Assembly: GCA_964016885.1 (NCBI GenBank)
Contig: OZ024740.1
Coordinates: 285,572,001-285,636,000 of the forward strand
Reading direction: 5' to 3'
DNA length: 64,000 nt
Source of the DNA: Eledone cirrhosa
Taxonomy: Eukaryota
The notes beneath the pieces were generated by a model. It searched no databases, had not been told where the DNA came from, and was given only the letters and a program-made list of their open reading frames with translations. This document shows positions 159-48,042 of this stretch, one piece after another. The first letter of the stretch is position 1, and each line of letters starts with the position of its first letter. The position numbers were made by a program, and so were the translations under genes.

Positions 159-607
159 TTTAAATAAAGCCCTTATTGTACAGCCAACCATGTTAATCTT
201 CATGCTTTAACTATTATTACTCCAAGTATAACGTGCATAAAAATTACCGCGAACTCGCTGCATAACTATGAAAGCATCTTGTTGAGTCAAAAAAAGCCGT
301 CCGTTAAAACTATCCACGACGCAGAGCACTCACAACCTCTAACTGGATTACCTATAACGATAACTTGTTATCCCATATATATATATATATATATATATAT
401 ATATATATATATATATATATATATATATATATATATATATATATATATATATTGTTATACTTTGGGAGGGTCATGTTGCCAATAAGAAACATACGCACCA
501 GTTGCTTTCACTTCAATTTAATTTATTATATATTTATAAATTTACAAATTTATAAATTTCTGGTTGGTTGGTTGGTTCCACAACCAGATATTTGTTTATA
601 TATATAT

Positions 608-652
608 AGTCATAGTTCTTTCGTCACACACTCTGTGACCTCTTCAGTGACT
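608..652 (-). ncRNA. Minimal type I hammerhead ribozyme (mirror copy)
   Basis: Reverse complement of 761-805 in the left palindrome arm. Confidence 0.75.
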
Positions 653-760
653 GGGGATTTCTTTCTTCGTTTCTGTGCCTTTCCTTTCTTCTATCCTACG
701 CCATTTTGTTGGCGTAGGATAGAAGAAAGGAAAGGCACAGAAACGAAGAAAGAAATCCCC

Positions 761-805
761 AGTCACTGAAGAGGTCACAGAGTGTGTGACGAAAGAACTA
801 TGACT
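761..805 (+). ncRNA. Minimal type I hammerhead ribozyme
   Basis: AGTCA-CTGAAGA-G-GTCACA-gagtg-TGTGAC-GAAA-GAACTA-TGACT: intact core, 6-bp stem II, 5-bp stem I, vestigial stem III. Confidence 0.75.
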
Positions 806-1033
806 ATATATATATAAACAAATATCTGGTTGTGGAACCAACCAACCAACCAGAAATTTATAAATTTGTAAATTTATAAATATATAATAAATTAAATTGA
901 AGTGAAAGCAACTGGTGCGTGTGTTTCTTATTGGCAACATGACCCTCCCAAAGTATAACAATATCGGTTTCAACACACGATTTCAGATAAAGAATCTTGC
1001 TAAACAAATTCAGAAACGAAATATATATATATA

Positions 1034-44200: not shown

Positions 44201-46859
44201 TGTGTAAATAAAGTATAACCTCAACATTGAATATATACATATCTAGGTCATTGGTTTGGTTATTGATTGTGTATTGGAAATGTCGCCCAATGAAAACTTA
44301 ACTACACATGAATAAATAAGATTGAAAATTTTATGAAAGTAATTCTGTTTACATTGGAAAATGATTTGTGTTCTTGTCTCTTGTATATTTAACCTCTAAT
44401 AAGGTCAAGTTTGAACAGAGTTTAATCTTTAGTTAACTACTCATTACAATATTTGCACATGTAACTCTACTGTCAACATACCTCTGTTGTTTGGCTCATA
44501 TATGATGTTTATTTGTCATTATCAGATTTTACTAAATCACTTTTACGAGAACTTCATATCGTTAGGCTTGCCTGACAATATGTTTACTATTTAATGCATT
44601 TAATCTTTTCCTTACCACATTTTTTAATGGATGATGATGCTTATGGGTTTCAAATAATTTTGAAAATAATCAAGAATTTCGAGGGATTTACTAATATGAC
44701 TTTCTCATTATTAAGCTAGTATTTGAAACATAACTTAAATGTTCTTACATAAAATAATGATGGCTGTTTTTTTTTTTTTTTAGATAAATATAAACACTTT
44801 AAAATAAACAGTTTATTATTGTAGAAACAGAGGCAGTTTGGTTTCAAATAGATTGAGAGAAGTAATTCAGGCACAGGCATGGTTATGTGGTTAAGGCAGT
44901 TGCAACTTTTTTATATTCAGTCCCACTGTGCGACACATTGGGCAGGTGCCTTCTATAACCATGAGTTGAGCAATGCTTTTTGAGTACAATTTGGTAGATG
45001 GATATAGTGCAGAAGCCTCTCATAATATGTATATATGTGTGTGTATGTGTCTGCTTATGTTTCATAACTTTGCTCTTTGACTAAAAGCGATTGATAAATC
45101 AAATATTAGGTTTGAAAACATAAATACTAAGGTTGATATGATTGGTTAAATCCTTTCATGGCTGCAGTCTAATGACTGAAACCATTGGAAGAGTAAAAGT
45201 AAAAGATTTTTTTACACTCTTTTCTCAACCCCGTTGAATGTTTAAGCAGGTTTCCTAGCTTTTTAATGTGATTAGAGTCACTGCCAAGTGCTGGGTGTTG
45301 AGACAGTCTGCATACTAGGGTCTCCTACATGACTCGTGAGGGACCACCAACGTTCAACCTCCCCAAAGGAATCCATAGGCATTTTCCTTTAGTTTCTGTG
45401 AACCTGTTGCAATTTGTGGATATTGATGTAATAGAAACATGGATAAGACAATTTTTATCTATAGATTCTTTGATACTGTCTCAACAGGGTAAGGAGGCAT
45501 CGTTCTGAGGTTTAACATACCTTATAGTTTGAGTTGAGTTTGCATTATTACAGAATTGTCATCCAAATCTGCCAGTCCCTGGGATAGCTTAATAAGACAG
45601 TTAAACCCTATCCTGCTTACCAGCAGCCTGTTTATGACCTGGGAGTCATTACAAATAGGATTGATGTCCATTCATTGTACACAGTTTCTGTATTGTCAGT
45701 TGTCCCTGAAGTGACTGGATCAATACAAGATGGCTGGACTGATTTCAGCTTAGCTCCAACTATGAGCACAATCCATTAAGAATACTACACTGACTCTACT
45801 CACGAATCAGCACTCAGAATTAACTGTCTCAAGAATATTTAAATGTTTTTCTACAAGCAGCAGTTGTACTTCAACACTGTGGAGTGTAGATCAAGGAAGA
45901 ACAAGATACAAAGTTACCCAATCATCATATGCTCATGTCACAAAGCTAGCTAATATTGTATATACTCGAATATGAGCTGAGGAATATGTAACCAAAACAT
46001 CGATGGTAAAAGGGTAGTGTCAGCTTATATTGAGGATGAATATTTTGATGATTTTCACCAACTTCAAATCCTACATAAATAGGTTTTGGATTTTTGCCCA
46101 TTTCTCAGACATAAAATAGTGGGGTCAGCTTATATACCAATGTATACAGTAAACACATTGGGGTAAAATTCTAATTCACTGTGCCTAGATATACTTTAGA
46201 TACTCATCCATTCACACTTCCATTTTACATATGAAGTATATTTTGAATAAAGGTCTTGTAGGTCTGACTGATAAGATACATGCTGGTTTTTGATGTATTT
46301 TCATGACTTAATCCTTTAGCATTTAAACTGGCCGTATCCAGCCAGAATTCTCTCACCTCTTTTTGTGCAAACTGGCTGTAACTGGCCACTCATACTGATG
46401 TTAAGGTATTGTTCTCAAAATAAATAATATCAAAATCTCATAGATTCGATATTATGTGAAATAAAGCCTTAACTATGAAAATACAATAGTAAATATAGAG
46501 TAATGTAAATGCTAAAGGGTTATTATATATGAGTATATTCAGTAATATAATTTTTGATACTTACTGAAAGTATGCTAGGATAGCTTAGTAATTTTGTTGA
46601 CTCAGACAGACAAATGATAGTCTCTGTCTATGTTGACAATATTTAAATTCAGAGTTGTAAACAACTAAATTGCTGAATACAACTTTACTATCAAACTTAT
46701 TTCAACCATTTAAAAACATATATATATTCATAATAATATGCTTTGATTATTGAATATGATTTTTTTTGTAATTTTTTATCTGAAGTAATTTCACCTTCTG
46801 TTTTCCTTTCAACTCTGTTTTGTCACAACATTGTTTAATTCTGGCCAAATAAATGCTGA

Positions 46860-47395
46860 AATGATGTATATAAAAAAATAATGAAAATATTGTGTACAGT
46901 GCTCAAGTGCACTACAACTCATCAAAAGTGTATGTATAGTGCATAGGGTAATGTACAAACGTCAGGAAAATGAACAGTGCATGAGTCATGATATACACAT
47001 GTGTGCATGTGTATGGAAGGAGGACATCAGGTGTAGTTTTGGCGAATTTCGGGAAGCATGAGTGTCTTAAAGGATGCAGCTAACAACTGACGCAGGCAGT
47101 TTGTTCCATGCTTCAGCAACTCTAAGCGTGAAGAAATGTTTCCGAAAGTCATGGGAGCTGTGCTGTTTTCTGACTTTGTAGGCATGTCCACGTGTGTTAG
47201 ACACATGGAGATCAAAAAGATGCTCCGGGTTGTTGGCGAGATGGTTAATAACTGTGTGGGTGTTTGCCAAGTCCATTGCCAGACGGAGCTTCAATGAATC
47301 CATACCAGGGAAGCAAGGCGTTCAGAGTATGGTAGGTGTCTGATGGAGGGTATGCGCTTGGTTGCACGTCTCTGAACAGTTTCCAGGAGGTCAAT
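46860..47395 (-). mobile_element. CR1-type LINE 3' fragment
   Basis: NTRGHAYKV...RKHFFTLRVAEAWNKLPASVV; a second 3' UTR copy lies at ~49760-49990. Confidence 0.8.
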
Positions 47396-47784
47396 ATCTA
47401 TGTGCATATATTATCTATCTATATATATATAATATTGTTTCTACTTTTGGCACAAGGCCAGCAATTACCCAGTGCATTACTGGCACTTTATTTTATCGAC
47501 CCCGTAAGGATGAAAGGCAAAGTTGACCTCGGCGGGATTTGAACTCAGAATGGCAAGGGCCGTAACTATGCGTCAAAGCATGGCGTCCGACCCTCTACCG
47601 ATACTGCCAATCCACCGCATTGGTGTGCAATGTTCAGTTACTGGTGGTTTACCAGTTTGAGCACTCAAGTGTCACATGTGAATATATACATATATATGTT
47701 TTATATTTACATATGTATGTATATATATATATATATATAGTTATATATATATATAGTTATATATATATATATAGTTATATATAT

Positions 47785-48042
47785 ATTAGAAATTATAAGC
47801 TTTCACCGTATTTTAGACTAAAGAAATTTTTAGCCTGATAGTGTTCTGGATAACCAAAGATGTGGGTTCGACTCCCATGTAAGACAACACTCATCTGTTT
47901 CCATTTCTCCGAGGGTTATAAACCCCACTATCAGGCTAGAAATTTCTTTAGTCTAAAATACGGTGAAAGCTTATAATTTCTAATTTCAAACTCGCGCACC
48001 GTTTCAAAAACATACTTACATGTTTACGTTTATAATTTGCTT
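47785..48042 (+). mobile_element. Asymmetric inverted-repeat element with an HHR-like 3' half and a tRNA-like spacer
   Basis: 59-bp arms 47785-47843/47926-47984; GAAAGCTTA at 47965; spacer contains GGGTTCGACTCCC; right extension to (TA)n. Confidence 0.6.

Follow-up and report, generated by a model that had tools for sequence, protein, structure and literature searches.

A 64-kb stretch of the Eledone cirrhosa genome (assembly GCA_964016885.1, contig OZ024740.1, positions 285,572,001 to 285,636,000; hereafter the window) contains ten inverted-repeat elements, most of them flanked by TA microsatellites and here labeled E1 to E10 in coordinate order. These elements are probably 5'-truncated insertions of several endonuclease-bearing Penelope-like element (PLE) families, in which two 3'-end copies lie head to head within a TA repeat, likely through priming of reverse transcription at both cut ends of the target. 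An earlier note, made from the sequence alone, had read them as non-coding fold-back ribozyme elements mobilised by PLE reverse transcriptase (RT); its observation is partly confirmed and its interpretation partly supported. The elements are not a new ribozyme system. They match a known PLE insertion scar and, as a system, are ordinary PLE debris.

Local alignment recovers inverted arms in all ten elements, at or near the positions where they had been reported and above the level of shuffled sequence. The arms are identical at 254/255 positions in E1 (loop of 6 nucleotides, nt), 191/192 in E2 (1 nt), 95/100 in E3 (2 nt), 58/59 in E4 (5 nt), 71/71 in E5 (30 nt), 699/707 in E6 (3043 nt), 154/175 in E7 (about 30 nt), 55/57 in E8 (4 nt), 15/16 in E9 (5 nt) and 58/59 in E10 (82 nt). 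The reported loop range, from 1 nt to a 3-kb open reading frame (ORF) with RT and GIY-YIG domains, is reproduced at 1–3043 nt. An unmirrored tail, which had likewise been described, extends a single side in 10/10 elements and measures 31–87 nt in nine of them, that of E7 being partly deleted; tails are family-specific in E1/E7, in E4/E8 and in E2 with its relative at 5915. TA-rich repeats border both sides of eight elements as claimed, and this part of the description does not extend to E3, where one side is (GT)n, or to E7, which has almost none.

The window is AT-rich and dense in (TA)n. An unbiased inverted-repeat scan of it (arms of at least 15 nt, loop of at most 100 nt) gave 10 short-loop centres, eight of which are listed elements; the two extra ones are a hammerhead stem near 6080 and an unrelated hairpin near 19360. 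With microsatellites removed, 12 centres were obtained, compared with a mean of 0.5 and a maximum of 2 in 20 shuffles. No symmetric palindrome of the E1–E10 kind was found in the scan. Non-palindromic stubs of the same kinds also occur in the window (5915–6190, 8262–9576 and 15345–15615).

The structure of E6 carries the argument for two priming events. A near-full-length PLE ORF (11611–13966, minus strand) runs into a collinear, tail-less 3'-terminal arm (10468–11179, minus strand), and the tail, of 31 nt and no copy of the left flank, lies on the opposite arm, an inverted 5'-truncated copy (14223–14969, plus strand) joined head to head without a hairpin at the junction. Because one complementary DNA (cDNA) cannot supply both the ORF and a tail on the opposite side, E6 did not arise from a single fold-back, and a fold-back origin as previously proposed fails for this element; two primings can supply both. 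In the proposed process, the enzyme would cut the (TA)n target on both strands. One cut end would prime RT at an inner start site, perhaps aided by 2–7 nt of TA microhomology, to give the short arm, and the other would prime RT at an outer start site to give the arm plus tail. Both copies would be made from one RNA or from sister RNAs and would stop at largely random points, after which the two truncated copies would be end-joined head to head, with the hammerhead carried along uncut and the 'loop' representing the surplus of the longer copy.

The relationship between arms is consistent with such a source. Among variable columns of E1 and E7, 27 group by copy and none by arm; in E4 and E8 one column groups by copy and one by arm, which is uninformative. 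Arms are thus closer within a copy than between copies, as expected of one RNA or one subfamily, and later conversion between arms is a possible source of the same likeness.

A PLE origin, as the earlier note had inferred, is borne out by the ORFs of E6 and of a 5'-truncated, ORF-bearing insertion of an abundant family (8262–9576, minus strand), together with common 3' ends. E6 and the 8262 fragment are PLEs. The ORF of E6 matches RT (PF00078) and GIY-YIG (PF01541) domains, is split by one frameshift near 12000 and has 1169 homologues. Both sequences have a cysteine linker of the CX2-5CxxC type (CX4CX2C in E6) before a C-terminal GIY-YIG domain with a CCHH motif; in the 8262 fragment, the linker and GIY-YIG-type motif lie in the C-terminal part (9576–8830, minus strand), which is identified by these motifs and by PLE-like homologues, no Pfam match being found. 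Octopus species and bivalves provide the nearest named homologues of the retroelement proteins in the window, in keeping with a molluscan host. E6 has no direct 5' pseudo-long terminal repeat (pLTR), and the small stubs have no RT/GIY-YIG ORF.

The 8262 fragment and the short arms of E1 and E7 share a 3' end, all three finishing in the same eight codons, MTLPKYNN; this pattern occurs four times in the window and never in shuffles. The short arm of E1 (449–703, minus strand) is a PLE 3' end read outward that stops after the first 8–9 ORF codons. Its long arm (710–964, plus strand) includes the ATG of the ORF at 939, and the frame runs on through the 56-nt tail (965–1020, plus strand). Between the tails of E1 and E7, 13 gap-free codons contain six synonymous changes and one non-synonymous change (P = 4e-4; a synonymous share of 0.21 is expected at random), and the five other frames give the reverse pattern. 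This coding signature and the eight codons shared with 8262 indicate that E1 and E7 are ends of a coding PLE and not of a non-coding family. The designation of the elements as non-coding therefore fails for E1, E7 and E6; E4 and E8, and perhaps E10, could be non-autonomous. Judged from layout alone, E3, E5, E9 and E10 would also derive from PLEs.

Searches for related loci yielded 56, five from genome contigs and 51 from metagenomes, mostly on short contigs. An inverted repeat is present in 9/56, a direct repeat in 21/56 and a hammerhead in 15/56; three loci checked end by end gave no clear tail assignment. The PLE ORFs at L001–L005 lie on contigs filed under bacterial genomes, and some protein matches are named as bacterial symbiont proteins; such records are probably mis-binned host DNA.

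The remaining elements vary the same layout. E7 (26706–27160) is a decayed relative of E1 with the same short-arm end and tail and a different centre. E2 (6874–7340) has arms at 6874–7065 and 7067–7258 and a tail to about 7340; a related solo arm with tail lies at 5915–6190 (minus strand) without an inverted partner, and another solo stub lies between TA tracts at 15345–15615 (minus strand). E3 (7948–8224) has a left-side tail and arms at 8018–8120 and 8123–8224. E4 (9599–9800; tail 9599–9676, arms 9677–9735 and 9741–9800) belongs to one family with E8 (35663–35859; arms 35663–35719 and 35724–35780, 79-nt tail), and the inner end, outer end and centre of the two are the same. E5 (9890–10140) has a tail at 9890–9968 and arms at 9969–10039 and 10070–10140. 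E9 (41133–41223), with 16-nt arms, is assigned tentatively, and E10 (47785–48041) has 59-nt arms, an 82-nt loop and a 57-nt tail.

Sequencing data from four of eight runs, aligned to 8250–9812 only, bear on the ends and joints of these families. Contigs came from X1, which may be the source sample, and from X4, which carries another species label; raw restriction-site-associated DNA (RAD) reads came from X6 and X7, which are other samples from another study. X6 places 659,247 of 12.5 million read records on this one 1.5-kb stretch, a number inflated by restriction sites. The inner end of the E4/E8 family lies at 9677, and 299 contigs of X1 pass into (AT)n at this position; the end is thus fixed across many copies. 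Fixed short-arm ends had been taken earlier as a sign of a programmed step. The ends themselves are real. They mark the 3' terminus of the element itself, since the ORF-bearing strands of the 8262 fragment and of E6 stop at the same place, and they are uninformative on the inversion step. By analogy, they would correspond to the inner site at which RT starts in vitro on an anole PLE in the available sections of PMC11167929, to which, as for the other papers cited here, statements on published systems refer.

In contrast to the inner ends, the points of 5' truncation are variable. Six of the 15 joints listed for the 8262 family switch strand (8327/8836, 8332/8851, 8335/8836, 8518/8652, 8652/9145 and 8842/8991; 246 further joints exist), each being present in both raw-read samples with 74–129 reads and one start each. 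The lengths on either side of each joint are those expected of head-to-head turns in reads anchored at restriction sites, and the joints are not accounted for by similarity within the sequence. Six different pairs of joint positions imply that the inversion point is not programmed in the 8262 family, and the centre of E1 differs from that of E7. Recurrence of the inversion point thus holds for E4 and E8, the exception, and not for the 8262 family or for E1 and E7. In run X4, at 8262–8290, the same PLE terminus occurs under the second species label and runs on into E1/E7-type sequence.

A total of 52 contigs read through the E4/E8 centre, as do 11 raw reads of X6 and 2 of X7, and in these the loop has 4 nt fewer. 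As these include reads of other samples, this family, the one checked, is no assembly artefact, in accordance with the earlier assumption that the palindromes are genomic. Read depth in X6 is about 11,900 before the E4 centre and about 470 beyond it, indicating that most copies are non-palindromic, although under-reading of hairpins and RAD bias possibly contribute. Fold-back of E4/E8 at a naturally long stem II was considered and is unsupported, most reads stopping short of passing the centre. Metagenome contigs gave no match to the E4/E8 pattern.

A descriptor for the minimal type I hammerhead, run on the window and 60 shuffles, gave seven matches compared with a shuffle mean of 0.38, and no shuffle reached seven; stricter and looser settings gave 4–8 matches compared with 0.15–0.58. 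The predicted enrichment is thus upheld. The matches are the complete hammerheads in both arms of E1 (cores at 647 and 766) and of E2 (6980, minus strand; 7152, plus strand), those of the solo stubs (6115 and 15544), and one at 40709 that is a probable chance match. The accompanying claim of a full or half hammerhead in most arms is not sustained: both core boxes are present in 6/20 arms and stems I and II both close in 4/20 (E1 and E2), and since few arms carry the CUGANGA box, the claim would be true only if a bare GAAA were counted. The exact box is found in 7/20 arms, always reading outward and never inward. Hammerheads are partial in E7, where decay is evident, in E9, where the plus strand has a core and stem II with stem I unclosed, and at 8509, a hammerhead-like core in the 8262 fragment. 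The first box is broken in E3; E4, E8 and E10 have just a GAAA, with no first box in E10, and the arms of E5 and E6 have no recognisable hammerhead. Truncation downstream of the core may explain the absence in E4, E5, E6, E8 and E10.

Rfam gave no match in the window at gathering score; below threshold there were one hammerhead match at E9 (21.6 bits, E = 5.6) and many microRNA matches. None of the hammerhead folds is exceptional by energy alone, and folding of the inner-end regions gave no shared hairpin (z from -1.55 to +0.95). Nor do the centres cluster immediately 5' of the hammerhead core, a pattern that was looked for; the distances are 4 nt (E9), about 35–42 nt (E7, from the loop midpoint), 56 nt (E1) and 85 nt (E2). 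As read from the sequence, the ribozyme rides as a passenger: intact copies appear uncut within the arms, and several elements have none.

Several points weigh against the proposed two-ended priming. All nine inner ends measured finish in 2–7 alternating A/T (background 0.20 for at least two), a measure that is partly circular because arm ends were defined by flank matching, and in which E4 and E8 are not independent. A single fold-back by self-priming would yield an identical product in the small palindromes. Tails of 54–87 nt exceed the 30–40 bp given in the available text of PMC8557442, and TA microhomology at inner ends departs from the non-homologous start described for the anole element in that of PMC11167929. 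The head-to-head direction of the read joints is a deduction from side lengths and not a tool output. The E4/E8 centre recurs and is non-random, the E4/E8 tail has no coding signal, and at 9736 a total of 208 contigs depart from the E4 arm and continue in mixed AT-rich sequence (agreement 0.43); this suggests a fixed 5' boundary at 9736, where the reference itself also turns round. A full-length parent was not found for E2, E3, E4/E8, E5, E9 or E10. Database proteins with the N-terminus of E1 were not found either, in a weak search whose query had 41 residues, and this N-terminus is not seen in six long homologues of the 8262 fragment, several of which lack N-termini.

The E4/E8 observations raise the alternative that PLE protein mobilises E4 and E8, and perhaps E10, E3 and E5, in trans, either as specialised non-autonomous units whose RNA has a defined 5' end or as palindromes that are already formed. 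This is unlikely to be the explanation, and it can hold together with two-ended priming. It accounts for the inner end, outer end and centre common to E4 and E8, whose arms differ at 1/59 positions compared with 10/78 in the tail (P = 0.02), for the recurrence of the centre in 52 contigs and of the 9736 boundary in 208, and for a tail lacking coding signal; non-autonomous PLE derivatives are in print (bioRxiv 10.64898/2026.07.22.740005 and PMC8557442, in the parts available). By X6 depth, however, palindromes are a minority of copies, with the biases noted above, the 9736 boundary coincides with the turn-round of the reference, the complete hammerhead is missing, and published retrozymes, as described in the accessible text, are head-to-tail tandems. 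A single-cDNA fold-back, in which a cDNA would start at the outer site, fold at a small hairpin, copy itself and join the other target end through TA microhomology at the inner site, is a still less probable account. Near-identical arms with loops of 1–6 nt (E1–E4, E8 and E9) and the recurring E4/E8 centre are what it would produce, and self-priming was proposed for PLE junction palindromes in the available sections of PMC3846280. It cannot yield E6, with its ORF collinear with the tail-less arm and its hairpin-free junction; moreover, the inner site doubles as a primary 3' end at 8262, and joints such as 8327/8836 pair distant positions without similarity.

Two further explanations are far more remote. 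Short size, inverted repeats and location in TA tracts recall DNA transposons of the miniature inverted-repeat transposable element (MITE) type with a TA target, and a TA-targeting Mutator-like family is described in the accessible part of PMC4486113. This reading is very improbable: the repeats are asymmetric and internal, one arm lying inside a 31–87-nt extension, solo arms and variable truncation occur, E6 encodes RT and GIY-YIG domains, and arms contain hammerheads and ORF-start codons. It is contradicted for E1, E2, E6 and E7 and could apply just to E5, E9 and E10; assignment to the MITE class was rejected, as fixed-length inverted repeats at both termini are not present. That the palindromes are assembly or amplification chimeras is extremely improbable, although three pairs (E1, E2 and E5) are nearly perfect and the read check covered one 1.5-kb stretch. 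Arms stop at family-specific element ends and do not run into the flanks, the arms of E7 have decayed to 154/175, the E4-type centre is spanned by contigs and raw reads from other samples, and the strand-switch joints are the same in two samples.

The layout of the ten elements agrees in most respects with published PLE structures. Inverted truncated copies, one-sided tails, junction palindromes, solo pLTRs and microsatellite bias have all been described before, as far as the available sections of PMC3846280, PMC8557442 and PMC8969392 go. For Adineta vaga Pen2a and similar elements, those of PMC3846280 describe an inverted pLTR, a tail on one inverted pLTR, head-to-head junction palindromes and solo pLTRs, with the first ORF residues encoded in the pLTR and more added by the tail; those of PMC8557442 (scheme in its Figure 2) describe an inverted 5'-truncated copy, a 30–40-bp tail at one end and a (TA)n bias, and term the origin of the inverted repeats and tails undefined. 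E1–E10 resemble these elements in the head-to-head truncated copy, the tail on one side, the palindromic junctions, the solo pLTRs and the pLTR plus tail with first ORF codons. They differ in that tails are 31–87 nt, most are ORF-less stubs and E6 is without a direct 5' pLTR; target duplications are unreadable here within (TA)n. The CX2-5CxxC linker, C-terminal GIY-YIG domain and CCHH motif are given in the same text of PMC8557442 as marks of Neptune/Nematis-type PLEs, and E6 and the 8262 fragment share with these the domain order, linker, CCHH motif and (TA)n target, a likeness in motifs. Unlike them, E6 itself has no hammerhead, though 15/56 related loci have one.

The anole Poseidon element PAc provides the closest mechanistic parallel in the accessible text of PMC11167929: in vitro, each of the two target strands is cut and extended, the tail corresponds to the stretch between two internal RT start sites, hammerhead cleavage is dispensable and the protein is predicted to be a dimer. 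As in PAc, where both strands are primed and the hammerhead is left uncut, two fixed 3' ends are spaced here by a tail that lies inside the ORF start, whereas PAc starts are non-homologous to the target and the inner ends here have 2–7 nt of TA microhomology. Schistosoma has pairs of minimal type I hammerheads on opposite strands, 100–700 bp apart, read as truncated PLEs (PMC4209133, available part); the pairs in the window have this arrangement, and the hammerheads likewise have an extra nucleotide before stem II and a tiny or palindromic loop III. Animal non-LTR (non-long terminal repeat) retrozymes are similarly short, hammerhead-bearing, PLE-pLTR-related and ORF-less, but are head-to-tail tandems in which every unit has a hammerhead (PMC7229834 and bioRxiv 10.64898/2026.07.22.740005, as far as available), whereas the elements here are head to head and mostly without a complete hammerhead. 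Assignment to that class was rejected, as self-comparison gives head-to-head pairs and no tandem hammerhead units, with a coding tail in E1/E7 and a tail without signal in E4/E8. No paper on such palindromes in cephalopods was found, subscription papers, Repbase and supplements lying outside the search, so that absence from print is not established; nothing relevant was found on Penelope twin priming with inverted copies or on head-to-head truncated hammerhead Penelope copies, and PMC13282606 mentions neither palindromes nor hammerheads.

Between 5600 and 15620, successive insertions form a chain within one expanding TA/CA array, a PLE nest. TA-flanked inserts without an inverted partner lie at 4240–5625, 10180–10460 and 15052–15255; none has a protein match to the retrieved PLE proteins, and 4252–4324 is repeated directly at 4734–4806. 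An 8-nt motif occurs four times in the window, in the tail region of E2 (7273, plus strand) and in three TA-flanked stubs (5986, 15138 and 15382, minus strand), and is a candidate RT-start or protein-binding signal. A broken Helitron-like remnant with a Pif1 2B domain match (PF21530) occupies 1442–3784. A 113-nt inverted repeat at 16457–16569 and 16943–17055 (111/113) surrounds 373 nt and does not have the PLE layout; the insert that holds it begins like the end of the Helitron-like remnant.

The loop of E10 (47844–47925) contains at 47865 a B-box-like motif that occurs nowhere else in the window (0.01 matches expected by chance). No tRNA was detected in this loop by ARAGORN. E10 is possibly a passenger derived from a tRNA and bounded by PLE-type ends. 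Its tail and right flank are locally duplicated (47971–48165 and 48289–48503).

What these elements may add to the published picture is the one-sided tail rule, the longer tails, the TA microhomology, and the conserved arm and recurring centre of E4 and E8, which may be a non-autonomous unit. A stricter formulation, tentative and on balance doubtful, would be that a PLE protein dimer invariably primes one target end from the inner and the second from the outer site on a shared RNA, with TA microhomology guiding the inner start, in which case the stubs would be a genomic read-out of PLE twin priming, and that E4/E8 is an abundant, ORF-less, non-autonomous passenger of about 140 nt with a fixed 5' boundary, whose head-to-head dimer with a 1–5-nt loop forms repeatedly or spreads as a unit. 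Such stubs are open to mis-annotation as MITEs or, given the many sub-threshold microRNA matches, as microRNA hairpins. The very many young stubs in this genome are material for counting end choice, microhomology and junction structure in PLE insertion.

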